Source: Actinomycetales bacterium
GTDB taxonomy: Bacteria; Actinomycetota; Actinomycetes; Actinomycetales; Dermatophilaceae
Assembly (NCBI GenBank): GCA_002748155.1
Contig: PDRO01000008.1
Coordinates: forward strand, 1,998-65,997
DNA length: 64,000 nt
Direction: 5' to 3'
Made by a program: the position numbers and the translations under genes. Below the pieces are notes generated by a model. The model saw only the letters and a program-made list of their open reading frames with translations. It was not told where the DNA came from and did no database searches. Shown one piece after another: positions 4,675 to 38,080 of the stretch. Positions within the stretch are counted from its first letter, which is position 1. Each line of letters begins with the position of its first letter.

Positions 4675-6450
4675 GTGCTGACTCAGCTGCGGATCACCGG
4701 CCTAGGCGTCATCGACGACGCCCGCCTTCAGCTGCATCCCGGCCTGACCGTGCTGACCGGCGAGACCGGGGCCGGTAAGACGATGGTCGTGCAAGGCTTG
4801 GGTCTGCTGCTCGGTGCACGTGCCGACTCCAGCCTGGTCCGGACCGGTCACCAGGCCACGGCCGTCGAGGGGATTCTCACCCTGGCCGACGGTCACCCGG
4901 CCCGAGAGCGAGCCGTCGATGCCGGTGGCCAGCTCGACGACGACGAACTGGTGCTGGTGCGCACCGTCTCGGCCGAAGGACGCTCTCGTGCACACGTCGG
5001 CGGCCGGGCCGCGCCGATCGGTGCCCTCGCCGAGCTCGGTCAGCTGCTGGTCGCGGTGCACGGCCAGGCCGACCAGTGGCGGCTGCGCCACGCCGAAGAA
5101 CACCGAGACCTGCTGGATACCTATGGCGGCCCCGACCTCACCGCCCGGCGGGCCGCCTTCGAGCGGGCGTATGCCGCGCTGCGCGAGGCACGCATGGAGC
5201 ACGACCGGTTGACGGCATTGGAGCGGGATCGGACACGCGAGACCGATCTGCTGACCGCCGGCCTGGAACACATCGAGAGCATCGGCCCGGAGCCGAACGA
5301 AGACATGACGCTTCGTGCTGAGGACGAGCGTCTGGCACACGCGGAGGGACTGCGACAGGCAGCGCTGCACGCCCAGGCCCTGGTTGCCGGCCCGGACGAT
5401 CCCGGCGTCACCGAGGGGGCCGGCATGGTCGAGCTGTGTGCCCGAGCGCGTGACCTGCTCGGATCGCAGTCCCGCCACGACCCGCGGCTCGGCGAACTGG
5501 AGACCCGAGCCACGGAGACCGGCTATCTGTTGGCTGATCTGGGTGCCGACTTGGCCCGGTATCTCGCCGACCTCGACGTCGATCCGGCTCGGCTGGCCTG
5601 GGTGCAGCAGCGGCGTGCCGACCTGGCCACGTTGACTCGACGCTACGGCGCCACCATCGACGATGTGCTTGCCTGGTCGCAGCAGGCCGCTGACCGGCTC
5701 ACCGAGCTGGCCCACGTGGACGACCGGCTAGGTCAGCTCGACCAGCAGTTGGACCAACTCCAGGCCCACGTGGACACCGCGGCCACAGCCCTCACCGCGG
5801 CCCGGCGCGCCGCCGCCGGCCGATTCGAGACCGCCGTGACCGAAGAGCTGTCCCACTTGGCCATGGGACGATCCCGGCTGCAAGTCAATGTCACCCCGGG
5901 TGGTCTCGGGCCGACCGGTGCCGACGATGTCGAGATCCGGTTGGCCGCCAACGCCGGTGATCCGCCTCGCTCGCTGGCCCGTGCGGCCAGCGGTGGCGAG
6001 CTGTCCCGGGTGATGCTGGCCATCGAGGTCGTCAGCGCGACAGCCGACGTCGATCCAGCCGCACCACGGTCGTCGACGCCACTGCCGACCTTCGTCTTCG
6101 ACGAGGTCGACGCAGGCGTCGGCGGAGCCGCTGCCCTCGACGTGGGGGCGCGGCTGGCCGCCCTGGCCCGGCATACTCAAGTGGTCGTCGTCACTCACCT
6201 GGCCCAGGTGGCCGCCTACGCGGACCGGCACCTCGTGGTGCGCAAGACCGACTTCGAGACTGCGGAATCAATCACCGAGAGCTCGGTCGTCGAAGTGGCC
6301 GGAGAAGCCCGCCTGCAAGAGTTGGCCAGGATGATGGGCGGTGACGACAGCAGGGCGGGGCGGGCGCACGCCGTGGCCCTGCTCGAGCAAGTCTCGGGAG
6401 GCGACGGGGCCGATGGCACCCGCACGTCACCGAGTGCTGCCCGGACATGA
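4675..6450 (+). CDS. recN: DNA repair protein RecN
   Basis: Walker A is [10 protein letters not shown] long central coiled coil is present. The C-terminal signature/Walker B region is [14 protein letters not shown]...[12 protein letters not shown]. Confidence 0.9.
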
Positions 6451-10892: not shown

Positions 10893-13109
10893 CTACTCGC
10901 TGAGCCCGTGGCGGGCGTGCCAGCGGCGTAGTGGCGCAGGCGCCCACCAGTTTCGGTCGCCGAGCAACTCCATGGTGGCCGGCACGAGCAGCATCCGCAC
11001 GATGCTCGCATCGAGCAGGATGGCGATCATCAGGGCGGTGCCGGTCTGTTTGATCGAGAGCATCTTGCCGGCAACGAAGCCGGCGAAGACGATGACGATG
11101 AGCAGGGCTGCGCTCGTGATGATCCGTCCGGAACGTTGCAGACCCAGCTCAACGGCCCGTTTACTCGACACCCCGGAGCGGTACACCTCCGCGATCCTCG
11201 AGATGAGAAACAGCTCGTAGTCCATGCTCAGGCCGAAGCCCAAGGCGAACACCAGTGGCGGGATCATGGATTCGACGGCCCCGGTCGAGGTGAATCCGAG
11301 AAGCTCGCTGAGGTGGCCGTTCTGGAAGATCCACGTCGTGATGCCGAGTGAAGCACCCAACGAGAGCACGTTGAGGATCAACGCTTTGATCGGGATGACG
11401 ACCGAACCGGTCATGAGGAAGAGCAACAGGAACGTGGCCGAGACCACCGAGGCAATAGCCAGCGGCGCCTTGGCTTTCAGCTCCTCGGTGAAGTCGGCCA
11501 AGTCTGCCGACTGCCCGGCCACCCAGGTCTCGAAGCCGGGGTCTTGAGCGCGCAAGGTCTCCACGAGGTCGTTGGTGACCGGGGAGAGGCTGCCTTCGTC
11601 GGTCCGGACCGAGACGACCGAGAAGCCGTCGCCCAACTCGTCCACCGAGACCGTGGCGACTCCGGTGAGTGGTTCGATGTCGTTCTTGGCATAGGCGGCT
11701 GCCTGGTCCGGCGATGCCTCGACGACAATGGTCGCCTCCGCAATGCCCAGTTGAGGGTAGTGGGCCTCGAGCGCGTCGAAGAAGTCGCGTTGGCTGGACC
11801 CGACCGGCAGCAGTTCGTATCTCGAATTGGTCAGCTGCATCGACAGTGTCGGCAGAGCGAAGACGATGAGGACACCGACAGTGACTGGGAACACGAGCCA
11901 CGGCATCCGATGCACCCAGCCGGCCAGCTTCGAGAACAGGCCGTGGTCGGAAGCGGTCTGCGTGCTCTTGGCCAGAAGCCGGTTAGCCGCGACAGCGCAC
12001 ATGGCAGGGACCAGCGAGATACCGGCCAGCATGGCGATGAGCACGACCGACATGCCGGCGGCACCGACGGCTCGCATGTACGACGCGTTGAAGACCATGA
12101 GCCCGGCCAGGGAGATGGCAACGGTGATCCCGGAGAAGAAGACCGTCCGGCCGGCGGTGGCGACGGTCCGAGAGATCGCTGTTTCGATCTCGGTGTCGGT
12201 GAGGCCGGCTGCCGGTCGGCCTCGGGCCACGACGCGCAACTCCTCACGCGCGCGCGAGACGATGAGCAGGCCGTAGTCGATGCTTAAGGCCAGGCCGAAC
12301 AGGGTGACGACGTTGACGACTGACGCGTCGAGGTCGAAGGCGTAGGTGAAACCGTAGAGGGCAGCCAGCCCACCAACGATTGAGGCGACCGCCCCGAGGA
12401 TCGGCATACCGGCAGCGATGAATCCACCGAAGACGAACACCATGAGAATGAAGCTCAACGGCAGGGCGATGCCTTCACCGGTGCGAAAGTCCTCTTGGAC
12501 CTGGTTGAGGATCTCGTCGACGAGCAGCGTCCTCCCCCCGATACTGGTCGACACCTCGGGGTCGCCGGGGAGCGTTCGTCCGAGATCCTCGTATGCCGAG
12601 CGCACGCTGGATTGTGCGGTCGTTAGGTGTTGCTCGTCGAGGCTCGAGTCGAACCGGGTGACCATGATGAAGCCGCCCGAGTCGAGCGCGCCGTCAGCGA
12701 TCAACCCGCGGGCTCGGGGATCGTTCGGACCATCGGGGAAGACGTAGGGGTTGGCCGCCGAGGTGACTCCGTCGATCCCCATGACCTCGGCTGCTGTACC
12801 GGCGGCCGCTTGAGCGACCTCGGGCGACGTGAGGTCCACCCCCTCGACCATGAGCAACACGCCAGCCTGCTCGCGCTCGTGCTCGTCGATGAGATCCCAT
12901 GCCGTCTGTGACTCTCCGGGCACGCTGGGAACGCCGCTGGTCAACCGGTCGAACAATGATTGGTTGGTGCCGAGGCCACCAAGGGCCACGGCGGCGGCGG
13001 CGATCGTGATGACCAACCACACAAGCGCGATCCGCCACGGATGCCTGGCGGTGACCCCACCCCACCGCGCCAGCAGGCTGTGACGATCAGCAGGGCTGCC
13101 GTTCCTCAT
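10893..13109 (-). CDS. MMPL/RND-superfamily membrane transporter
   Basis: The 738-aa protein has two blocks of transmembrane helices separated by soluble loops. Typical MMPL segments include GIALPLSFILMVFVFGG, DYGLLIVSRAREE and MDYELFLISRI. Confidence 0.85.
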   Translation of the reverse strand: MRNGSPADRHSLLARWGGVTARHPWRIALVWLVITIAAAAVALGGLGTNQSLFDRLTSGVPSVPGESQTAWDLIDEHEREQAGVLLMVEGVDLTSPEVAQAAAGTAAEVMGIDGVTSAANPYVFPDGPNDPRARGLIADGALDSGGFIMVTRFDSSLDEQHLTTAQSSVRSAYEDLGRTLPGDPEVSTSIGGRTLLVDEILNQVQEDFRTGEGIALPLSFILMVFVFGGFIAAGMPILGAVASIVGGLAALYGFTYAFDLDASVVNVVTLFGLALSIDYGLLIVSRAREELRVVARGRPAAGLTDTEIETAISRTVATAGRTVFFSGITVAISLAGLMVFNASYMRAVGAAGMSVVLIAMLAGISLVPAMCAVAANRLLAKSTQTASDHGLFSKLAGWVHRMPWLVFPVTVGVLIVFALPTLSMQLTNSRYELLPVGSSQRDFFDALEAHYPQLGIAEATIVVEASPDQAAAYAKNDIEPLTGVATVSVDELGDGFSVVSVRTDEGSLSPVTNDLVETLRAQDPGFETWVAGQSADLADFTEELKAKAPLAIASVVSATFLLLFLMTGSVVIPIKALILNVLSLGASLGITTWIFQNGHLSELLGFTSTGAVESMIPPLVFALGFGLSMDYELFLISRIAEVYRSGVSSKRAVELGLQRSGRIITSAALLIVIVFAGFVAGKMLSIKQTGTALMIAILLDASIVRMLLVPATMELLGDRNWWAPAPLRRWHARHGLSE

Positions 13110-13250
13110 GGCGGATAGCCTCTCATGGTGCGACCGGCTTCTGGATCACGAGCGGATGCGGCCGCAGTTCTCCCAAAGGCATTCTCCCTTGCGTTGCAGA
13201 GAAACTGGCGCCTTCAGCGAAGCTATCGTACGATGAGAACCTCGAGCGCA

Positions 13251-15506
13251 TTAGCCTACCCGTGCACCGTCGGCTGGTACGCCTTCGCGCCAATATGCCA
13301 TGCTGTTCTGCGTCTTTCCGGACAGGCCGAACTGACCTTTAAAGATCGAACGAACCGTTTGGGCTGCATTGAACTCTCCGGCGAACCAAGCATAGGACAC
13401 AGGTTCGTTCGTGCAGTTTCGGATCATATCCGCGACCTGCTCGGAAAAAACCGCCGGCTCCACTGCGGTCACTTTTCGGTTTGATGGAGGTAGATAGGCC
13501 TCCAGAGCCTCCTGTGACGGGGCGGCAGCGAATAGATAGCCGGTGACCCGGCCATCGACGTTCTCAATGAGTCTCGCCACCGCAGGCAGACCGGTGTAGT
13601 CAGCGGCCAGGACAACATTGTCAGTGCTAGGTAGGTGGGGGTCTCCGCCAGGGCCCATAACGCCCACCTCTTGTTCGTCACCTTCGAGTGCCGCCCAGTT
13701 CGAGATGAGACCGCCGTCATGATGGGCCACGTCGACATCGATCTCACGCTCATGTAACCGAATCTGGCGGATCGTCACGAAGCGGGCGTGGAGCTTGTCT
13801 TGTCCCTGAGGCCATGAAATGCCGCCGTTTTCAGCGATCACCGGCCAGACCGGCGTGCGGCCACGCTCTTCGGGCATCATCACTTTGATGTGGATGCCGT
13901 CCCGGGTCAGTGCCTCTACATCGATGCCTGAGAGCGTCACTCGGATCAGCCCTGGGAAGATCCCTTGTCTTCGGGTAGCTCGCAGGATGCGGAAGTTGGA
14001 GGGCAGCTCACCGACTCGGATACCCCCGGTCCAGCGCATCTCTTCGATCGCTTTCGGATCAATCTCACCCACATGCTCGACGATCTCATCGCGAATGAAG
14101 GTCATGAAATTATCAGTGGGGGTCTCAATGCGGATGTCGATCGCGCCTTCCAGTGCTTTCATCTCTACCTTGCAGCCCATTTCTTCCATCAGCAGACAGT
14201 CTGGCCCCGGTCGACTGCAGGTGATGCCGTGTTCGGCGAGTTCAACCTCGCAAACGTCCAGGATCTTTGCGGCGCTATCGGTCGTGATTGTTCCCGTTGA
14301 CACTACCTGCTCGCCATCAAGACCCACGGCAGACGTGCCGAAGGGACCAAACCAGAAGTAAAGGATCGCCAGGGGTACGAAGCCAAGCAAGACAGCCGTA
14401 GCGAAAACCGGCAGATAGCCTTGATTGTCGTAGATGTTGCCGGAGACGGGATTCATAAGAATGGGCAGGAATGACATGATTGCCACCTGCATCGTGAAAT
14501 CGAAGCCGGGGATTTGTGGGCGTACCTTGTCCATTGCTCCGCCATACAGCGCGACATCGGCTATTGCGATGGCAGCCCAGGCAATGATGATGGACACCCG
14601 GACTCCCCCAGGTAGGGTGGCGGCTAGAATACAGGCCGTGATCAGCACGGCGATGTTTATCAGCCCCACCAGATAGAGCGCGCTAACCCGAGGTAGGCGG
14701 CGGATCAGCGGGCCGATGATAAGCGACGAACCACCCGCCGCAGACATGGCTAACAGGCCGAACCACAGGGCGATTTCCTCGGTCGACATTCCCTGGTCAA
14801 CCATCATCATGCGTAGGGGCAGCGTGATCAGGGCAAGCGGCAGGCGCATCGTGCATAGTATCGCCAGCCAAGGCCGTATGCGCGGCTGCACGAAGAAGCG
14901 TAGCGCGTTTCGGAAAGTCACTTTGGGTGCGCTGCGCGGGCGCGCCGGTTCCTGCACAAGCACGAGCATCAGCAAAGGTGCGGTGAAGATCGCGGCCTGT
15001 GCCAGCAGAGCAACGGTCCAACCGATCCGGTCGTAGAGATGGAGAAACCCGAAACCCCCGACTATCGCCCCGAGATAGATGCCGAGGTTTTGAAAGCTGG
15101 CGCCCATAGTGCGCTCTTCACGGTGCGTGAGCGATATGGCCAATGCGTCCACAGCGACGTCTTGGGTGCTGACAGCCGCCAAGGCGATGAAAAGCACAAT
15201 GAAAAGAGGAATAACAGGACCAGAAGGATCGAGGAAAGCTAGGACAAGCAGTGCCGCCACGTGGAGGCTTGAGAGGGCAACGATCCAGGACTTGTAACGG
15301 TCGCGTCCGAGCCTGTATTTGTCGATTAGTGGCGCCCAAAGGAACTTAAGAATGTACGGTGTGCCGGCCAGCATAACGAAGCCGATGGTCGTGGCCGAGT
15401 GCCCTTCTTTGCGTAGCACAATCGGCACCGTCATCAGGGTGAAGGTCGCCGGGATGAACTGTACGGCGTAAAGCATCCCGATGACGGACAGGATACGCCA
15501 ACGCAT
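13251..15506 (-). CDS. Fusion protein: AmpG/RhtX-FptX-like MFS permease + DUF2218-like linker + siderophore-interacting protein (SIP/ViuB flavoreductase)
   Basis: The N-terminal ~400 aa are polytopic and AmpG/RhtX-like (LKFLWAPLIDKY...). The C-terminal ~270 aa carry SIP hallmarks: RFVTIR (cf. the RxYTxR FAD motif), IDVDVAHH, GPGG and YAWFAGE. It is one uninterrupted ORF. G+C is much lower than in the neighbours (line 14101-14160 is 31/60 G+C). Confidence 0.75.
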   Translation of the reverse strand: MRWRILSVIGMLYAVQFIPATFTLMTVPIVLRKEGHSATTIGFVMLAGTPYILKFLWAPLIDKYRLGRDRYKSWIVALSSLHVAALLVLAFLDPSGPVIPLFIVLFIALAAVSTQDVAVDALAISLTHREERTMGASFQNLGIYLGAIVGGFGFLHLYDRIGWTVALLAQAAIFTAPLLMLVLVQEPARPRSAPKVTFRNALRFFVQPRIRPWLAILCTMRLPLALITLPLRMMMVDQGMSTEEIALWFGLLAMSAAGGSSLIIGPLIRRLPRVSALYLVGLINIAVLITACILAATLPGGVRVSIIIAWAAIAIADVALYGGAMDKVRPQIPGFDFTMQVAIMSFLPILMNPVSGNIYDNQGYLPVFATAVLLGFVPLAILYFWFGPFGTSAVGLDGEQVVSTGTITTDSAAKILDVCEVELAEHGITCSRPGPDCLLMEEMGCKVEMKALEGAIDIRIETPTDNFMTFIRDEIVEHVGEIDPKAIEEMRWTGGIRVGELPSNFRILRATRRQGIFPGLIRVTLSGIDVEALTRDGIHIKVMMPEERGRTPVWPVIAENGGISWPQGQDKLHARFVTIRQIRLHEREIDVDVAHHDGGLISNWAALEGDEQEVGVMGPGGDPHLPSTDNVVLAADYTGLPAVARLIENVDGRVTGYLFAAAPSQEALEAYLPPSNRKVTAVEPAVFSEQVADMIRNCTNEPVSYAWFAGEFNAAQTVRSIFKGQFGLSGKTQNSMAYWREGVPADGARVG

Positions 15507-30021: not shown

Positions 30022-30636
30022 CGGGGGGCCGAACCCCTCGCCATATTCCAGGCATTGTTTCTCGCGGTCTCCAGATCGTGGGGGAGTCTCTCGCCGTGTT
30101 CGGGCACACCGGACAACGCGCCTCAGCCACCGGCCCGGGCTAGCTGCTGGCCCACGCCATCGGCACTGGACGGGCGGCCGGGGTGGTTGAGCAGGTATTG
30201 GCCCGGGCTGATGCGGCCTGCTGCGGGTGGGCTGTCGTCGGTAGCGTGATTCGGCGCCGGGCGTGACCGCCCGGATGACTCCCGCCGTGACCGCCGCGGT
30301 CACTGCGATCAGTGACGACCCGTGGCAGCCCATCACTTACCCTCACGCTATCTGTGGAGTCAATCGGGTCATCGGCACCGAACACTGAGTCTCAGACGCC
30401 GGAGTCGCCGAAACCCGGTTCACCGCCATCACTCACCGCCACCGCGACCAGCAGGTCGACTGTCGGCTGGTCTTACGCCGCCGTCGCAGATACCACCTCC
30501 GCGCATTCGCCTGAGAAACCCCTGGGCCTCCGGTTGTGCCTATTGGTGGGCGAGAAAGTGTATCAGCGATTCGTTTGATGCCTCTTGTTCTGTAGGCGCA
30601 TCCTGCGCCGAGCACTGAGCGAAAGGAGAGGCAGTC

Positions 30637-32769
30637 ATGTCTGCTCGTGCAATGGGTCCCACCTACGCTGGCGGCGCCCAGTCCGTCGTCCGCGACGGAT
30701 ACTCTATTCTTTACCTGCCTGATATCAACAACCAAGAACTCATTGCCACAGGCCAGTCGCCTGTCTACTACTTCGTCCCGAACCAAGTTCGGATGGCGAG
30801 GAAAAACGGTCCAGAAAGCGGCGATTATCTATTCAACCTCATCCGCTTCGCTGGAACTGGTGGCGATGGCGTCATCGGTGGCGCTGGAGAAACGGCAGGC
30901 GGCGTTCTGACATTCTCAGTCACCGGTGATCTACCCCCCAAAACCCGGAAGCAGGCCGAGTCGCATATTACCGAACTAGTGACCTCATGGGACGAGGCGT
31001 TCTGGGGCGCCAAAGCAGCCATGAAGCCCCCCGTATTCCGGCCCGCCATCGTCACTTCCTCGACTACGGCCATCTCCAACGTTGCGCCCACGCCACGAGG
31101 CTTTCCTGTGATGCTGCCAGAAGCGCGCGGGTCCTCCGCCGGGGAGATAGTCTATCGAGGCACGCTCGAGTCCCGCCCTCGCGACAGCAATGAATCGGAC
31201 TCGAATCTCGATCCGTGGTACTGGAAGATGGAAGGTCAAGGAACGGGGTCCATCGACCCTTCGGGCACGCATGCGTTCAGCGGGCTTCTTGGTGTCTATC
31301 CGACCAGCATCTGTTGGGCCGCCTTCCATGGCACAGCATCCCCGCTCATTGTCATACAGAACTACAAACTCAAAGTCTGGTCGCCTTTGATGAGCCTCAA
31401 GATTCATGGCAGCTGGGACAAAATATTCACCCACTTCTCCAAGGCAGCCGGTGCTGGAGTTCTTTGGTTCTCGGCCGGCATCAAGCACGAAATCAACGAA
31501 ATGGTTAAGAAGGGGGACATCGAAGTCGAGATGATAGTCGACCAGACCTTGCCGAACTCTAAGCAGATCGCGAAACAAATGCAAGAACGCAGCGATTTGG
31601 TGTTCACCAAGTTTATGGAGCAGGCCCAACGGGTTATTTTCGACCCCCCGATGCCCCAGGTGGAAGCCGCCCACGCATCCTCAGGTGGTGGCCTTTTTGG
31701 CCTATTCGGCGGTGGTTGTGCGCTCAACTACCGCCGTGACACGACGAGGCTGAGCCTTAGCTACGAGGAGACTTCCCAGTTCGCCTATCTGCAGGATCAC
31801 ACGATCAGCAGTTCGCTAGCGGGAATGTTCGACGAGATGCATGCCGACCCTGAGGCAGAACGCAAGTACTTCCAGACCGTCTACCTCGACGACTGGCCTC
31901 GGCGACTGGCCAGGGTGGTCCGTCCCGTCGTGCCGTGGCGTGATGCGACGGTCGATTTCGTTTCCGTGCAGGTCGGCTACCCCAACACCAACGGGGCCAT
32001 CAACTGGGAAGGGCACAGCTTTTCCGACACCGATGGCAATGATGGGACCTGGAAGTTCCAAACCGCGCAAAAGGCTTTGTCCGACGTATCATCGCCGCCT
32101 GCTAGTTGGAAACCCGACCTCACGTTCGTCAAGCGTAAAGTCCACTTGGCTGAACCACCGAGTGAAATCGAGGATCCGTATCGCCGGGTTCAGATCGAGC
32201 GCAACGTCATCGATCTCGATTCTGGTCCGCGCGGGTCACTCATTAACGACACGACTCTCGAAGTGCGAGCCGATTCGGCAGGCAGGCTCGCTGTCGGGCC
32301 GATCCAGTTGGGTGTGATGCTCACCGACGCGTCCCAGGTCGTCGAAGCCGTTTTCGAAGCCACGGACCCCGACGGAGAGCCACTGGGTCTCGCGCCCGTG
32401 CGGTTCCGGTGGAATCACTCTGATGTAGACACTGACCGGACGTGGACGATCTTCACCGGGGACCCAGATTTCAGGCCTTTCTACCGATACCAAGTCTCGG
32501 TGACCGTGAAGGGAACATTGTTCGAGCCCGGGCGGGCATGGACTGGGCCTTGGGTGAGCGCCAACGGCAACGGCCCCCTGGTCATCGACATCCCGAGGCC
32601 AGGTGACGACGGTGTCGTGACCCGCTCGATTCCTGAAGCTCGGGTGGCGGCTCTTCGCGCCTTGACTCGTGGAACAGCTGAGTCTCATCCAGTTGAGCGC
32701 AACGTGGCTGAAACGACCGGAGTCGCCGAGGACAAGACTGTCGTGCGTTTCCGCAATTATCAGGTGTGA
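30637..32769 (+). CDS. Uncharacterised 710-aa protein (island gene 1)
   Basis: A strong RBS (gaaaggagag) lies 7 nt before the ATG. The long ORF stays open in a region of reduced G+C. By eye I see no signal peptide, no transmembrane helix, no P-loop and no recognised catalytic motif. A Gly-rich hydrophobic patch (SSGGGLFGLFGGGCAL) sits mid-protein. Only 3 nt separate it from gene 2. Confidence 0.8.
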   Translation: MSARAMGPTYAGGAQSVVRDGYSILYLPDINNQELIATGQSPVYYFVPNQVRMARKNGPESGDYLFNLIRFAGTGGDGVIGGAGETAGGVLTFSVTGDLPPKTRKQAESHITELVTSWDEAFWGAKAAMKPPVFRPAIVTSSTTAISNVAPTPRGFPVMLPEARGSSAGEIVYRGTLESRPRDSNESDSNLDPWYWKMEGQGTGSIDPSGTHAFSGLLGVYPTSICWAAFHGTASPLIVIQNYKLKVWSPLMSLKIHGSWDKIFTHFSKAAGAGVLWFSAGIKHEINEMVKKGDIEVEMIVDQTLPNSKQIAKQMQERSDLVFTKFMEQAQRVIFDPPMPQVEAAHASSGGGLFGLFGGGCALNYRRDTTRLSLSYEETSQFAYLQDHTISSSLAGMFDEMHADPEAERKYFQTVYLDDWPRRLARVVRPVVPWRDATVDFVSVQVGYPNTNGAINWEGHSFSDTDGNDGTWKFQTAQKALSDVSSPPASWKPDLTFVKRKVHLAEPPSEIEDPYRRVQIERNVIDLDSGPRGSLINDTTLEVRADSAGRLAVGPIQLGVMLTDASQVVEAVFEATDPDGEPLGLAPVRFRWNHSDVDTDRTWTIFTGDPDFRPFYRYQVSVTVKGTLFEPGRAWTGPWVSANGNGPLVIDIPRPGDDGVVTRSIPEARVAALRALTRGTAESHPVERNVAETTGVAEDKTVVRFRNYQV

Positions 32770-32772
32770 ACC

Positions 32773-35283
32773 ATGAATACGGCAACGGTTGAGTTGGTTC
32801 GTGACGAAAAAGGGCGTGCCAGGCTGTCTGCAACGTTCCTCGTCACCCGCCTGCCCGCGCCCAATGAGCGGCTCGGAGATCTCGTTCACCACGCGAGCGT
32901 GGTGTTCGAGATCCGGGCAATCCCCGCCACCGGATGGCCACGCTGCACGACGCTGAGCGTCGATGGCGGGGAAACGCTCGAGCTGGAGGGCCCCTTCGCG
33001 CAGGCTGCTCTCCACCTGGTGGCCTCCGGTACGGCATCGGGTGAAGTGTTGCGCGCTCTGATACGCGGTTCCGGGGGACCCTTGGTGCGCGCCCATCTTG
33101 TCGGTGACTCGTGGCAGACCAGTTGCGAAGTGCCGCTGGGTGAACTCTTAGCATCTGAAATGCCGGACGATCATTGGTTGCATGTGACTACGACTGACTC
33201 GGACGGCCTCGTCGAAGTGGCACCAGTCCGACGGTCGCGAGGCGATGCTGATCGGTTTGTGACAGCTGGCTTGAAGCGTGCCAACAATGAAATAGTTCCG
33301 ATCAGCGTGGCGCTTCGACCCGACACGGCAAAACCTGTTCCGCTCATCCCGATCACGGCGATTGCCACTCCGCTGGTGACGATAGTTGCATCGCCACCCA
33401 CGCACGGTGGTCCGGTCCTTGGCCCGGTCACCGGGGCGATGCGAGACCGCGACAGTTCGGCTCAAGGCTGGTACCTGCCCGGCTGGAGCTGGGAAGCTCC
33501 AGGCCGGGGTCAGGTCGATCCCCAGGTCGCGCCATTCTCGTTTCGGATACGACGCGAGGGCTACACCATGGACGGTCGAGACGGGATTGTCGCGGTGGTG
33601 AGGTTCCGATTGTCCAAACAGGCTCCTGCTGGTCTTGATGTTTCCGCTCTGCGGGAGTTGCCGGCGCAGTATCGGGTTCAATTGGCCATCCCCTACCGGG
33701 ATGAGTCGGGTGAAGCCCGGATCGAATACCACGCGAGTACCCGGCAAGAGATCAATCAGGACGAGCTGATCGTGGACTTCGAGGTGCGTGACCAATGGGC
33801 GCGCATGGCCTACGGTGCACTCTCCACACCCGGTTTCCAAAGTGCTGGTGCGCAGCTCGTGGTGACCGCGACGTACTCGGGATGGCGCTTGCAGCGTCGA
33901 CGAATCGTTGGGGAGAAGATTGCTGTGGGCCTGGCCGGGCGCGAAGAGTTGCGCCCATCGTTATCGATGTTGGCCGGTGCGCGAGTTAATCTGAAGCCGA
34001 TCGCTCACCGAGTCGACATATCAGCGCTGCTTGAAGTCACGAAATCAGAATTAGTGTGGTCTCAGGTCACAGAGCGGTTGGATTCCATTGAGGTTCTGGT
34101 CGACTGCGCTATCTCGGGTGAGCTCTACCGGATGCTCGACCAGGGCCTGGACACGGCGCTGGGTTGCCAGCCCGTATTCAGTCTGGGGCAAGGGGAACCG
34201 AGGACCCACGAGGTTGTCGACGTGACAGCGGCGAGCGGCCGTGCCACGATCTTGCGTAGCCTGACCCGGCCGCGCCGGTTCTTGGTTGTGCCGGCAACGT
34301 ACTGCATCGGACGCTATGGCCCCGATGTGCAGGACGTGGCCTACCAGCCGTCGTTGTTGCTGCACTCAACCATCGACGTGGATTCCCCAGAGAACATTCG
34401 TTGTGTCATCGCAGCCGGGCTGCAGATGGATGTTCCTGGGCATCTTATGGCTCAGGTTGAGGCGGAGCTCGCTGGCGTTGAAGGCGGACCGGTGGTGCTT
34501 GAGTCACCCTGGGAGGCAGGTCTCATCCCCACTGTGGATTGGGCGTTGCCCAGTGCGACGACGGTAGAGTGCCTCGCCTGCGACACCGGATTCCAGCTCA
34601 TCGTGTCTAGCGACGTGCCTGGTTTCCTCACTCTGCAATCGTTGCTGCGCACTGCCGGAGTCAGTGGACTGGCCACCTATACGCTGCCCGACGGCACGGA
34701 AGTCACTTCCCAGTTGAGGTTGGCGTTGGATCGCGTAGTCGGCCCTTATCCTCACGGTGGAATTCGCCTCAGTGCTAATGGCTCTGAGGTGGAGCTTCGC
34801 AACGAGCTAACGCGGCGGGTTGCTGTTGGCGAATTGCTCCACAGGGGAGTGAAGGTGGCATCGATCGACGAGATTCTCGCCCCCGGTGATAGCACGCGGG
34901 TGGCTTGTTCTGAAACCACTGATCTGACCGTGAATAGTCACGTTGAACCCGGCTCGGAGACCCTGAACGAGATGCGGGCCTACGTCGAGGATCTGCAACT
35001 CAACCTCGTTCTCGTCGCCACGAAGGAGATTCCTCAAGGGGACAGCATCGATGTCGTCGTCACGATGAGAGATGATGGCGCGCGCGCTGAAGTCAGCCTC
35101 AATGACAGCAAACGCCAAGCCGATGTCACATTCACCCTTCCGCTGACCCGCTATCTTGCTGATCCGCAGCTAGACGTAACCACTTCCCGTGGTGGTTTGC
35201 GACTCGAGTCCTTCACATGGGCAGTTCGGACTCAGGGAGTTCTAATTCCACTATCCGTTCCTGAAGAAAGGCCTGTATCATGA
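32773..35283 (+). CDS. Uncharacterised 836-aa protein (island gene 2)
   Basis: The ATG is 3 nt after the gene-1 stop, and its own stop overlaps the gene-3 start (ATGA at 35280-35283). Composition looks beta-rich. I recognise no transmembrane segment, signal peptide or nucleotide-binding motif. Confidence 0.8.
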   Translation: MNTATVELVRDEKGRARLSATFLVTRLPAPNERLGDLVHHASVVFEIRAIPATGWPRCTTLSVDGGETLELEGPFAQAALHLVASGTASGEVLRALIRGSGGPLVRAHLVGDSWQTSCEVPLGELLASEMPDDHWLHVTTTDSDGLVEVAPVRRSRGDADRFVTAGLKRANNEIVPISVALRPDTAKPVPLIPITAIATPLVTIVASPPTHGGPVLGPVTGAMRDRDSSAQGWYLPGWSWEAPGRGQVDPQVAPFSFRIRREGYTMDGRDGIVAVVRFRLSKQAPAGLDVSALRELPAQYRVQLAIPYRDESGEARIEYHASTRQEINQDELIVDFEVRDQWARMAYGALSTPGFQSAGAQLVVTATYSGWRLQRRRIVGEKIAVGLAGREELRPSLSMLAGARVNLKPIAHRVDISALLEVTKSELVWSQVTERLDSIEVLVDCAISGELYRMLDQGLDTALGCQPVFSLGQGEPRTHEVVDVTAASGRATILRSLTRPRRFLVVPATYCIGRYGPDVQDVAYQPSLLLHSTIDVDSPENIRCVIAAGLQMDVPGHLMAQVEAELAGVEGGPVVLESPWEAGLIPTVDWALPSATTVECLACDTGFQLIVSSDVPGFLTLQSLLRTAGVSGLATYTLPDGTEVTSQLRLALDRVVGPYPHGGIRLSANGSEVELRNELTRRVAVGELLHRGVKVASIDEILAPGDSTRVACSETTDLTVNSHVEPGSETLNEMRAYVEDLQLNLVLVATKEIPQGDSIDVVVTMRDDGARAEVSLNDSKRQADVTFTLPLTRYLADPQLDVTTSRGGLRLESFTWAVRTQGVLIPLSVPEERPVS

Positions 35284-36629
35284 CTGGGTATTCACTTCAC
35301 ATCGGCCTGAACGACGTCGATCATTCTGCTTATCCTTCTGACTGGGATCCTTGGCTACCGACTTGCCACAACGATGCCAACGACATGCGGGATATTGCGG
35401 TGTCACAGGGCTTCCTTCCGACCGTGATGCTCGACTCGCAGGCTACCTCCTCGGCTGTGCTCAGCGCCATTGCCGGTCTGGCGAGGAAATGCGGCAGAGG
35501 TGACATCGCACTCATCACATTCGCCGGTCACGGTGGTCAGGTTGACGACTTCAACGGCGACGAGCCTGATCACTATGACGAGACATGGGTTTTGTGGGAT
35601 CGGCAGGTCACGGACGACGAGTTACATGCGGTCTACCGACAATTTCCTGCAGGCAGTCGGATCGTCGTTGTTTCCGACTCGTGCCACAGCGGCACCGTGG
35701 TGCGTTCCAAACTCTCCCTGGCGATGCGTGATGCCATTATTGGAATTCGGGAGGAGATCGGCGAAGAGGTCGTTGTCGAGCCAGGCGTCCCGCGTGCGAT
35801 GCCTGTGGGCACGGCGATTCGTGACGCGCGCGACCGAGCCGAGATTTATGCCATGGCTCAAGCAATCGCGGGGCCCAGGAGTACTAGTTTGGCTGCTGAA
35901 CTGATCCTGATAGCGGGATGCCAAGATCACCAGTTCGCCTTTGAGGGAGAAACGAACGGCGCGTTTACGGGCGCGCTCAAATCGGTTTGGGATGAAGGGA
36001 AATTCCAGGGAGACTATCCGCAGATGGTCAAGCGAATTGCCTCACGGATGCCAAGCGACCAGGTCCCGAATTACTTCACGATCTCAGCCAGTGCGGGGTT
36101 CCAGCGGCAGCGACCGTTCACCGTGGCCGACCCTGCCGCTGGCGGATCGGGTCCGCCGCCCCCGGCACCTCCGGGTGGCCGTCCGACACTCCGGCAGGGT
36201 TCTCGCGGTGAAGATGTGCGTGACTTGCAGCAATTGCTGATCAATCACGGATACTGGCTGGACGTCGACGGTATTTTTGGTGGGGAAACGGCTCGTGCGG
36301 TGCGTGACTTCCAACGTTCGAAAGGCCTGACTGTCGACGGTGTAGTGGGTGCTCAGACGTGGGCAGCGCTGGAGGGGGCAGGCTCCCCGTCGCATCCGAC
36401 GCCCGATCCCACGCCGCCGTCGACATCGTCGCGGCGGACGATCCGTCGCGGTGATAGAGGCGACGACGTCCTATACCTACAGCAACAGCTGAATAGCTTG
36501 GGGTATCGGCTAAGCGTGGACGGGATCTTCGGTTGGGTGACGGAATCGGCGGTCCGATCGTTCCAGAGCTCTCGTGGGCTGACTGCCGACGGGATCGTGG
36601 GACCGATGACGTGGGCTGCGCTTGGTTAA
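35280..36629 (+). CDS. Caspase-like cysteine peptidase (C14/metacaspase fold) fused to two PG_binding_1-type peptidoglycan-binding repeats (island gene 3)
   Basis: The N-terminal ~270 aa carry the caspase dyad in canonical contexts: ALITFAGHGG (His84, nt 35529-35531) and IVVVSDSCHSG (Cys135, nt 35682-35684). A Pro/Gly linker follows. Then come two ~65-aa repeats (LRQGSRGEDVRDLQQLLINHGYWLDVDGIFGGETARAVRDFQRSKGLTVDGVVGAQTWAAL and IRRGDRGDDVLYLQQQLNSLGYRLSVDGIFGWVTESAVRSFQSSRGLTADGIVGPMTWAAL) typical of PG_binding_1. No signal peptide is visible. Confidence 0.85.
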   Translation: MTGYSLHIGLNDVDHSAYPSDWDPWLPTCHNDANDMRDIAVSQGFLPTVMLDSQATSSAVLSAIAGLARKCGRGDIALITFAGHGGQVDDFNGDEPDHYDETWVLWDRQVTDDELHAVYRQFPAGSRIVVVSDSCHSGTVVRSKLSLAMRDAIIGIREEIGEEVVVEPGVPRAMPVGTAIRDARDRAEIYAMAQAIAGPRSTSLAAELILIAGCQDHQFAFEGETNGAFTGALKSVWDEGKFQGDYPQMVKRIASRMPSDQVPNYFTISASAGFQRQRPFTVADPAAGGSGPPPPAPPGGRPTLRQGSRGEDVRDLQQLLINHGYWLDVDGIFGGETARAVRDFQRSKGLTVDGVVGAQTWAALEGAGSPSHPTPDPTPPSTSSRRTIRRGDRGDDVLYLQQQLNSLGYRLSVDGIFGWVTESAVRSFQSSRGLTADGIVGPMTWAALG

Positions 36630-36646
36630 CGCCTGCTCCGGTGGTT

Positions 36647-36682
36647 GAGCCGGGCCGTGCGCGACAGTGAATGGCCCGGCTC
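36647..36682 (+). terminator. Stem-loop immediately after the island operon (possible intrinsic terminator)
   Basis: A perfect 10-bp inverted repeat, gagccgggcc (36647-36656) and ggcccggctc (36673-36682), flanks a 16-nt loop and starts 18 nt after the gene-3 stop. There is no U-tract, which is common in actinobacteria. Confidence 0.45.
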
Positions 36683-36856
36683 GAAATCGTCTCGTACCTG
36701 ACGTCGTTTCATGTGATGGGCAGTTTCGAGAGGCTCGCAGGCATTCGCCTAGCCAGCAGTGGTGGGGTCCGAATCCCGCCGGGGGAGCACAATCACGTCC
36801 CCGTCGCTCACGTCGCACCGCGTGCGACACGTGGACGACGTGAAAGGATCGGGTGC

Positions 36857-38080
36857 ATGCTGCGCTGGCTCACTGCGGGGGAGTCCCACGGTCCTGCCCT
36901 GGTCGCCATCATCGAAGGACTGCCGGCTGGTGTCGAGGTCACGACCACCGATCTCGCTGCCGCGCTGGCGCGTCGGCGCCTCGGCTACGGCCGCGGAGCG
37001 CGGATGTCTTTCGAGCAGGACGAGGTCGAAGTCCTGAGCGGGGTCCGGCACGGACGGACCCTCGGGTCTCCGGTGGCGATCCGGATCGGGAACTCCGAGT
37101 GGCCGAAGTGGCAGACCGTGATGAGCGCGGACCCGGTCGAGGCAGCGGCATACGCGGCAGCTGACGATGTCAATGCCGAGCGTGAGATCGCCCGGAACAA
37201 GCCGCTCACCCGGCCCCGTCCGGGGCACGCCGACCTGGTCGGGATGCAGAAATACGGCTTCGATGACGCCCGGCCGGTGCTCGAGCGGGCCTCGGCCCGG
37301 GAAACCGCGGCCCGGGTGGCCCTCGGCGAGGTTGCCGCCCGGCTGTTGCAGCAGGCCTACGGGGTGCAGCTGGTGTCGCACACGGTCGCCATCGGTGGTG
37401 CCGGTGTCGACGACAGTGCTCCACTGCCAGGCCCCGGGGACGTGGCGGCACTCGATGCCGACCCGGTGCGTGCCTTCGAGACCGCCGGGTCGGCGGCCAT
37501 GGTGGCCGAGGTCGACGCGGCGAAACGGGCCGGCGACACGCTCGGTGGCGTCGTCGAAGTGATCGCCTACGGACTGCCGCCCGGCCTCGGGTCACATGTG
37601 CACTGGGATCGGCGGCTGGACGCCCGACTGGCCGGCGCCCTGATGAGTGTCCAAGCGATCAAAGGGGTCGAAGTCGGCGACGGCTTCCGGACGGCGACCC
37701 GGCGGGGTAGCGCCGCCCACGACGAGATGGAGCGCGGCGCTGACGGGGTCATCCGTCGGCGCACTGGCCGGGCCGGCGGCACCGAGGGCGGCATGTCGGT
37801 CGGCGGGATGCTGCGGGTGCGTGCCGCGATGAAACCGATCTCGACCGTGCCCCGGGCCCTGGGCACCGTCGATGTCGCCAGCGACGAGCCGGCCACCGCC
37901 ATCCACCAACGCTCCGACGTGTGCGCCGTGCCCGCCGCCGGGGTGGTTGCCGAAGCCATGGTCGCGCTCGTGCTCGCCGAGGCGTGCCTGGAGAAGTTCG
38001 GTGGCGATTCGGTCACCGAGACCGCCCGCAACCACACGGCCTACCTGGAGGCCATCCCGGAGCGGATGCGCTCGTGGTGA
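36857..38080 (+). CDS. aroC: Chorismate synthase
   Basis: The canonical N-terminus [25 protein letters not shown] is present, with GRSSARETA-like ([12 protein letters not shown]) and GGMS motifs. A gaaagga RBS precedes the ATG at 36857. The longer ORF-track start at 36671 is rejected. Confidence 0.9.

Follow-up and report, generated by a model that had tools for sequence, protein, structure and literature searches.

A conserved three-gene module pairs two large paralogous proteins with an exchangeable protease in bacteria and archaea

Death effectors that are gated by a protease, among them gasdermins, Pepco and EACC1, represent an emerging logic shared by bacterial and animal immunity. Bacterial gasdermins adjoin proteases of mixed families, both C14 and CHAT (bioRxiv 10.1101/2021.06.07.447441). 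In the Pepco, EACC1, MBL-fold and alpha/beta-hydrolase modules, which are common in Actinomycetota, site-specific proteolysis unleashes a latent death effector, and peptidoglycan-binding domains are among the sensor domains fused to proteases that partner the pore-former Pepco (Evans et al. 2025, PMC12642450). Type III-E Craspase brings together the TPR-CHAT protease Csx29, Csx30 and RpoE (PMC10028731), and a SAVED-CHAT to PCaspase cascade leads from CHAT to caspase with a sigma factor involved (10.1101/2023.06.23.546230). Here we describe three adjacent genes, P1, P2 and P3, found in a 64-kb stretch of DNA (hereafter the window) from a metagenome-assembled genome (MAG) named 'Actinomycetales bacterium'. 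P3 encodes a C14 protease, and P1 and P2 encode two large proteins. The trio is a conserved unit that is horizontally mobile across phyla and domains. Our preferred reading, which we hold tentatively and place just short of probable, is that it forms a self-contained executioner module, gated by both proteolysis and transcription and probably cell-killing.

Analysis of the open reading frames (ORFs) of the window placed all three genes head to tail on the + strand: P1 at 30637-32769 (710 amino acids, aa), P2 at 32773-35283 (836 aa) and P3 at 35280-36629 (449 aa). P1 and P2 are separated by a 3-nt gap, and P2 and P3 overlap by 4 nt (ATGA). A ribosome-binding site, AAGGAG, can be read from the sequence at 30623-30628 on the same strand, 8 nt before the ATG of P1. 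The coordinates and this site confirm the tightly packed three-gene operon that had been proposed from the DNA letters alone (the original prediction). The deposited gene models (CSA84_04670 and CSA84_04675) give 552 aa rather than 710 for P1 and 794 aa rather than 836 for P2. The longer ORFs are right because the homologues align from residue 1, and the conserved N-terminus of P1 (MGPTYAGG) also supports its longer ORF.

Over 225 proteins are close relatives of P1, and every one is annotated as hypothetical. A hidden Markov model search of 1.84 billion representative proteins returned 408 matches to P1 at E <= 1e-3 (108 at E <= 1e-30), and the family amounts to ~400 representative clusters at 50% identity. 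Scanning one genome per species yielded 63 P1 loci, and the module occurs in about 60 genomes from at least 10 bacterial phyla and three archaeal lineages. The bacterial hosts include Actinomycetota, Bacteroidota, Chloroflexota, Myxococcota, Alphaproteobacteria, Desulfobacterota, Planctomycetota, Acidobacteriota and Armatimonadota; the archaeal hosts are a Methanosarcina MAG (L047), a Methanotrichaceae MAG (L049) and the isolate Halogeometricum pallidum (L056). Full-text searches of the literature turned up no paper describing the trio.

We surveyed the linkage of the three genes by tblastn and ORF analysis in 67 loci retrieved with P1. In every locus where the DNA reaches far enough, P1 is immediately followed by P2, the exceptions being one Streptomyces locus (L058) and decayed copies. 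Among the loci that also extend over the next position, nearly all have a C14 or S8 protease as the third gene. The co-occurrence on which the original prediction had suggested a survey was thus borne out, and its reservation that homologues might usually occur without a linked protease applies only to the one odd Streptomyces locus. In this locus, from Streptomyces varsoviensis (L058:9844-13872), a 1342-aa ORF consists of two tandem P1-like copies and no P2 or protease gene comes after it. Other departures from the usual arrangement are a P2-like fragment that lies upstream of P1 but on the other strand in a Mycolicibacterium MAG (L052:7804-9843, - strand) and a frameshifted, apparently decaying trio in a metagenomic sequence (L070:12290-16995).

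We consider the trio mobile because of its base composition, its association with transposases, its presence on a megaplasmid and its phylogeny. In the window, GC content falls by ~8 points, to 0.59-0.62 over 30-36 kb from 0.67-0.71 in the flanks. Transposases adjoin the Streptomyces and Deinococcus copies, and a Deinococcus megaplasmid carries the trio under the RefSeq labels 'hypothetical, hypothetical, caspase family protein'. A single clade holds copies from archaea, Mycolicibacterium, Acidobacteriota and Bacteroidota. We rated the neighbour-joining tree as better evidence than the only moderate correlation of pairwise identities between P1 and P2 or P3 (Spearman 0.37-0.42, computed on single high-scoring segment pairs), which was not used as evidence of co-evolution.

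P3 matches Peptidase_C14 (Pfam PF00656; E 1.6e-22, 80.8 bits against a cut-off of 21.4) with a protease domain of the metacaspase/orthocaspase type (35280-36134, + strand). Its catalytic dyad, His84 and Cys135 in the motif DSCHSG, is invariant in 39 orthologues. We take DSCHSG to be the signature of metacaspases and orthocaspases, as opposed to the QACxG of caspases, and by this likeness to metacaspases P3 would presumably cleave after Arg or Lys. The C-terminal half (36204-36626, + strand) carries two PG_binding_1 repeats (aa 309-364 and ~393-449; E 7e-43) joined by Pro-rich linkers, and the protein has no signal peptide. The third gene is thus, as first described, a C14 protease with an intact dyad and two peptidoglycan-binding repeats. 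Its sole match in PADLOC-DB v2 is a weak, generic 'caspase' model (33.4 bits), and it scores 37.8 bits against the NCBIfam model 'caspase, EACC1-associated type', which has a cut-off of 140.

The third gene is not a caspase in ten loci. Where scanned, it encodes a Peptidase_S8 subtilase of 800-1180 aa in which the His and Ser motifs are present, in some cases with a fervidolysin-like prodomain. The S8 proteins of the two methanogen loci (L047 and L049) carry Peptidase_M15_3 with intact Zn-binding motifs (SxHxxGxAxD and HVD). In the neighbour-joining tree the seven S8-linked P1 sequences form one clade, and its sister, L043, is caspase-linked. The C14 protease of L043 has two copies of domain X, a ~120-aa unannotated repeat with no Pfam match that is found at caspase C-termini and on S8 subtilases. 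Domain X is absent from the actinobacterial caspases, present in one or two copies in those of Bacteroidota and Chloroflexota, and present in two or three copies in the subtilases (for instance, L043 aa 316-565; L036 aa 317-442; L047 aa 577-692, 707-821 and 1028-1148). Both PG_binding_1 and M15 are missing from L043, L055 and several S8 forms. From the graded distribution of domain X it follows that the catalytic domain was swapped and the accessory architecture kept. Because the caspase is replaced by an S8 subtilase within one P1 clade, proteolysis of P1 and P2 would seem to be the core function; the pattern argues for a conserved need for proteolysis and for a protease that acts on P1 and P2 or together with them. 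The proposal that the trio is a protease-gated module therefore stands in part: the three genes are a linked unit, and the S8 swap is as expected if the protease acts on P1 and P2. The abortive-infection part of the proposal, discussed below, gained no support.

The two large proteins had been described as showing no assignable motif, and database searches agree: neither P1 nor P2 has a significant match in Pfam, NCBIfam, PADLOC or PHROGs, and their family profiles found nothing below E 0.1 among PDB sequences. Neither has a signal peptide, and no hydrophobic segment is conserved across the orthologues of either protein. A hydrophobic stretch at residues 189-207 of P2 was considered as a membrane anchor and rejected, as the orthologues do not keep it. 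An hhalign comparison matched residues 8-412 of P1 with the N-terminal module found in long forms of P2 (probability 95.6%, E 1.2e-8); thus P1 and P2 are distant paralogues with a common N-terminal module. P2 ranges from 836 to 1190 aa, and the P2 of the window is a short form in which part of this module is deleted. Mean pairwise identity is 50% for P1, 29% for P2 and 45% for the C14 protease. With P1 the most conserved and P2 fast-evolving, these values would fit a constrained executor with a fast-evolving partner.

In the AlphaFold model of P1, the N-terminal module (~1-410) has two very long beta-hairpins (252-300 and 360-393) and a 28-residue helix. A Gly-rich hydrophobic loop at 346-361 (SSGGGLFGLFGGG) is conserved, with the family consensus GGG..PWGVG. 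Three well-predicted beta-sandwich domains follow at ~420-665. The C-terminal tail (~666-705 in the window) measures 45-100 residues across the family, is highly variable and is predicted to be disordered. Despite this variability its end-motif is conserved, with either type of protease: [FY]xxYx[VL]-COOH in Actinomycetota (FRNYQV in the window, FLNYQL and YLDYKL elsewhere) and GWxx[VL] outside them (GWKQV, SWVRL and GWSL). The combination of a variable linker and a conserved end-motif resembles an autoinhibitory or docking peptide. P2 is modelled as a string of beta-sandwiches with long disordered linkers at 131-209 and 376-423; the model is based on a shallow alignment, because a second P2 profile search gave the same 14 proteins. 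Foldseek searches with P1 (PDB and BFVD) and P2 (PDB) returned only generic arrays of immunoglobulin (Ig), fibronectin type III (FN3), pilin and macroglobulin (MG) domains. Because these matches are only generic, we file P1 and P2 under no known fold family. Complement-like, pilin-like and known pore-former identities were each rejected for the two proteins, as the matches are generic arrays at very low TM-scores. The original prediction had listed findings that would count against it; the searches placed neither protein in a housekeeping or structural family, no PADLOC model names the trio, and the dyad is invariant.

A promoter-like motif, GTATCA-N16-CTCTTG, lies at 30560-30587 on the + strand, 50 nt before the ATG of P1, and is a putative promoter of the extracytoplasmic function (ECF) sigma type. 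The form GTATCA-N16-CTC[TC]TG is invariant, 50-75 nt before the P1 start, in 13 loci (12 related loci plus the window). It occurs once in the 64-kb window, where 0.09 copies are expected by chance. The original prediction had read the 615 bp between the A24 prepilin-peptidase gene and P1 (30022-30636, + strand) as an untranslated region. They are better read as an intergenic region with a close promoter, because the motif is so near the start codon. Small ORFs in this region have no homologue that we could find; blastn and tblastx comparisons with the related loci gave no similarity of note, and none to the relatives' CHAT or sigma genes or to transposases. A first impression that the region holds a remnant of an insertion sequence was dropped, given the lack of transposase similarity.

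In the closest relatives (Tessaracoccus, Arachnia, Aestuariimicrobium and Propionibacteriales MAGs), four genes stand directly upstream of the trio. They encode an S8-like protease, an ECF sigma factor, a co-conserved acidic protein of 159 aa and an 820-aa TPR-CHAT protease, and none of the four proteins has a membrane segment. This module, ~5.5 kb upstream of P1, was found in L005, L006/L071, L007, L008, L010, L012-L014, L016 and L021. The motif recurs before the ECF-sigma gene or the S8-sigma operon of the related loci, so that it is found in pairs (for instance, at 6285 and 9924 in L005, 338 and 5432 in L021, and 4675 and 9913 in L012; others have similar pairs). Such sharing would be the signature of an autoregulated ECF sigma factor with the trio as its target, and by position the 159-aa protein is a candidate anti-sigma factor. 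Searching the window by tblastn with the sigma factor, its partner, the CHAT protein and the S8 protein found nothing; the genes may lie elsewhere in the genome. Either the sigma factor on which the trio of the window depends is encoded outside these 64 kb, or the trio is an orphan. In other phyla the commonest neighbours are LuxR/GerE, BTAD, two-component and AraC regulators. This upstream ECF-sigma, TPR-CHAT and S8 module of the relatives, the paralogy of P1 and P2 and the spread across phyla and domains formed no part of the original prediction.

If the trio is an executioner, the cell would make P1 and P2 in a latent form, soluble in the cytoplasm. The co-encoded protease (C14 here, S8 in one clade) would cut them in disordered, poorly conserved segments, for which the P1 tail (~666-705), P1 149-201, P2 131-209 and P2 376-423 are candidates. 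Cleavage would then free the conserved N-terminal modules for assembly. Our preferred guess is that they would attack the membrane by way of P1's long beta-hairpins and Gly-rich hydrophobic loop, and that the producer cell would stop growing, die or lyse. The wall domains on the protease (PG_binding_1 here, Peptidase_M15_3 elsewhere) might allow a response to peptidoglycan fragments or, alternatively, an endolysin-like delivery of the protease to the wall after a breach of the membrane. Expression would be gated as well, since the dedicated ECF sigma factor of the nearest relatives would drive the trio via the shared motif. A more specific version of this scheme seems to us rather unlikely: that P1 and P2 form a new two-component family of protease-activated executioners, spread over bacteria and archaea, whose protease is triggered in the cytosol when its PG_binding_1 or M15 domains recognise peptidoglycan fragments, and some of which stand under a TPR-CHAT/ECF-sigma cascade. 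This version would make the trio a prokaryotic analogue of NOD-type muropeptide sensing tied to caspase-driven death, with a P1/P2 family unrelated to gasdermins, MACPF or Pepco.

Several observations weigh against an executioner. Every mechanistic step is one that we infer: that the protease cuts, what it cuts, that the membrane is attacked, that the cell dies and what triggers the module. The structural models have only moderate confidence, with pLDDT (predicted local distance difference test) values of 72.9 for P1 and 68.9 for P2. The P1 tail is not confidently placed or docked by the model, Foldseek TM-scores normalised to query length are at most 0.18 for both proteins, and no known pore-former or effector fold was matched by either. 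Constitutive defence systems are less typically under tight transcriptional control. The genomic setting lends no support to phage defence either. Neither 50,697 phage records nor IMG/VR contained P1, and no copy was found on a mobilisable plasmid, the sole plasmid match being a non-mobilisable megaplasmid. The neighbourhoods of the trio consist mostly of housekeeping genes, and a PADLOC scan of 101 flanking ORFs, called crudely in this GC-rich DNA, gave only isolated matches (PDC-S02, mads and PD-DExK). The abortive-infection or anti-phage role of the original prediction is not supported, given these neighbours, mostly housekeeping genes and regulators with few PADLOC matches, and the lack of P1 in the phage collections. 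The flanks are likewise not defence islands, a setting for which it had suggested a survey, and with isolated matches of this kind we do not claim a defence-island context.

The wall domains raise a further difficulty. PG_binding_1 and M15 are normally extracytoplasmic or endolysin domains, so that a wall-directed role fits at least as well as a sensor role, and the archaeal hosts of the module lack peptidoglycan. The trio might accordingly be a cassette for lysis or antibacterial attack, in which P1 and P2 make a holin-like breach or are released by lysis and P3 acts at the wall of the producer or of its competitors. PG_binding_1, in the C-terminal half of P3, is also the domain with which phage endolysins bind the wall, the top PHROG matches of P3 are all endolysins (E down to 2.5e-43), and endolysins too lack signal peptides. 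The archaeal S8-linked M15_3, with its Zn-binding motifs retained, may be an active peptidoglycan peptidase, and an outward-directed target is plausible because these hosts have no peptidoglycan themselves. However, neither C14 nor S8 domains are known as peptidoglycan hydrolases, the wall domain is dispensable (it is missing in L043, L055 and several S8 forms), and no secretion signal, secretion-system gene or immunity gene is found nearby. We consider this explanation unlikely.

We regard it as quite unlikely that the protease is itself the effector and that P1 and P2 are sensors, baits or regulators, in a logic like that of alpha-2-macroglobulin and complement. The linkers of P1 and P2 would then detect a ligand or a foreign protease, after which P3 would degrade many cell proteins, as PCaspase does. 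Broad proteolysis of the PCaspase type is an established killing mechanism, and P2, at 29% mean identity and with its wide range of lengths, evolves fast, as recognition components do. Both models also gave repeated weak Foldseek matches to the MG arrays of complement C3/C4/C5, CD109 and alpha-2-macroglobulin. The TM-scores are very low, though, so the complement likeness amounts only to 'many beta-sandwiches'. The thioester motif CGEQ is absent, with only an invariant GCQ in P2, and P1 is far more conserved than expected of a sensor.

Distinctly unlikely, in our judgement, is a structural role with no function in conflict, in which cleaved P1 and P2 would polymerise, like type V pilins after gingipain cleavage, into a filament, sheath or matrix for envelope stress or development. 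The C-terminal domains of P1 do match pilins, namely Mfa3 (5nf4; probability 0.99, target-normalised TM-score 0.36), FimA2 (6jzj) and Spy0128, but each match covers no more than a single generic domain. A clan-CD cysteine protease is required for the assembly of type V pili, and ECF sigma, two-component and BTAD regulators are typical of stress and developmental regulons. Against such a polymer stand the absence of export signals and of any usher, sortase or anchoring gene, and a patchy, horizontally transferred cross-domain distribution that would be unusual for a structural organelle. Finally, although the window lacks the sigma and CHAT genes of its closest relatives and the L070 copy is frameshifted, it is extremely unlikely that the trio is a set of chance neighbours or a decaying remnant, as order and orientation are kept in about 60 genomes from two domains and the window has intact ORFs, catalytic residues and promoter motif.

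In the window, the genes alaS, mltG (YceG), aroE and the A24 prepilin peptidase lie upstream of the trio, and aroC, aroK and aroB lie downstream. Given these housekeeping flanks and the low GC content, the trio has been inserted into a conserved housekeeping cluster. It has no part in making aromatic amino acids, and the aro setting named in the original prediction is an accident of insertion that reflects no functional link. The insertion site shows no tRNA gene and no convincing flanking direct repeat, and the window contains no CRISPR-like repeat array. A hairpin lies 3' of the P3 stop codon (36645-36684, + strand; free energy -36.6 kcal/mol, z -3.97 against shuffled sequences). It is real, as originally noted, and stronger than the 10-bp stem first reported (~14 + 3 bp); it is not a canonical intrinsic terminator because it has no T-run. 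The longest aroC ORF (36671-38080) begins within the 3' arm of this hairpin. Its true start codon is probably further downstream because the chorismate synthase domain begins only at residue 64.

Elsewhere in the window, a second stretch of low GC content (10893-15506, - strand; 0.59-0.63), with genes for an MMPL transporter (738 aa) and a 751-aa fusion of a major facilitator superfamily transporter with a siderophore-interacting FAD-binding protein, may also have been acquired as a block. A tandem-repeat array with periods of 15 nt and 78 nt (score up to 367) occupies 2174-2543, probably in a repetitive coding region.

Turning to described systems, the trio matches no gasdermin, NTPase, Cas or PADLOC system, and in this respect the original prediction, that it fits no named system, stands. 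The NTPase conflict systems (STAND, vWA-MoxR and GTPase; Kaur et al. 2020, PMC7159879) are not represented, as we found no NTPase domain in P1-P3 and none recurrent among the neighbours. P3 has the same layout as phage endolysins with PG_binding_1, with an N-terminal catalytic domain, C-terminal repeats and no signal peptide. It differs in that the catalytic domain is C14 rather than a muramidase, amidase or CHAP domain and in that the locus is not in a prophage. The type V (Bacteroidota) pilins with gingipain-type proteases likewise place beta-sandwich subunits beside a clan-CD cysteine protease, and P1 matches Mfa3/FimA. Those matches are weak (target-normalised TM-score at most 0.36), however, and the trio has no lipoprotein signal or export and anchoring genes and occurs also in Gram-positive bacteria and archaea.

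The relatives' arrangement of a TPR-CHAT protease, an ECF sigma factor with a small partner and a second protease upstream of the C14 operon is like that of Craspase, CalpL/CalpT/CalpS and SAVED-CHAT, an analogy which suggests a proteolytic and transcriptional cascade. Unlike those systems, the trio comes with no CRISPR-Cas, Cas7-11, SAVED or cyclic-oligonucleotide component. It also differs from the known sigma pathways in that its sigma-type motif marks it as a candidate target operon, and that the upstream genes are not in the window. A TPR-CHAT/ECF-sigma module with a candidate target bears on a question raised by Craspase and Calp, namely what the released sigma factor turns on.

The likeness to bacterial gasdermin operons (Johnson et al.; bioRxiv 10.1101/2021.06.07.447441) lies in a latent protein beside a caspase-like or other interchangeable protease, in a candidate inhibitory C-terminal tail, and in a compact, horizontally mobile cassette. 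Gasdermin systems have an adjacent protease of the C14, CHAT or subtilase type, and the trio likewise has a C14 or S8 protease gene beside its partners. No gasdermin-fold protein (about 240-300 aa) was found by PADLOC or Pfam or among the top 50 Foldseek PDB matches of P1 and P2. The partners are instead two paralogues of 700-1200 aa made largely of beta-sandwiches, and the protease has wall-binding domains rather than TPR, LRR, WD40 or NACHT. In its peptidoglycan-binding domains the protease resembles those of the Pepco-type modules. Neither size nor sequence relates P1 and P2 to any of the four effectors of the Pepco, EACC1, MBL-fold and hydrolase modules, and the trio has no fused STAND or Avs sensor. 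Cognate effectors of this type were not found either, as Pfam gave no Lactamase_B, hydrolase or small-effector match, in searches that used no dedicated Pepco or EACC1 models.

By analogy, then, the trio would work most like the gasdermin-protease and Pepco/EACC1-protease pairs, yet it belongs with neither because its partner proteins are unrelated to those effectors. It is a variation on the protease-effector theme built on a new protein family, for which we claim no anti-phage role. To the known pairs it would add a widespread module with two large partners of no described family or fold, and a natural experiment in which proteases were swapped and accessory domains kept. Wall-binding domains on a protease that is not exported raise the idea that the sensing of cell-wall damage may be coupled to proteolytic cell death.

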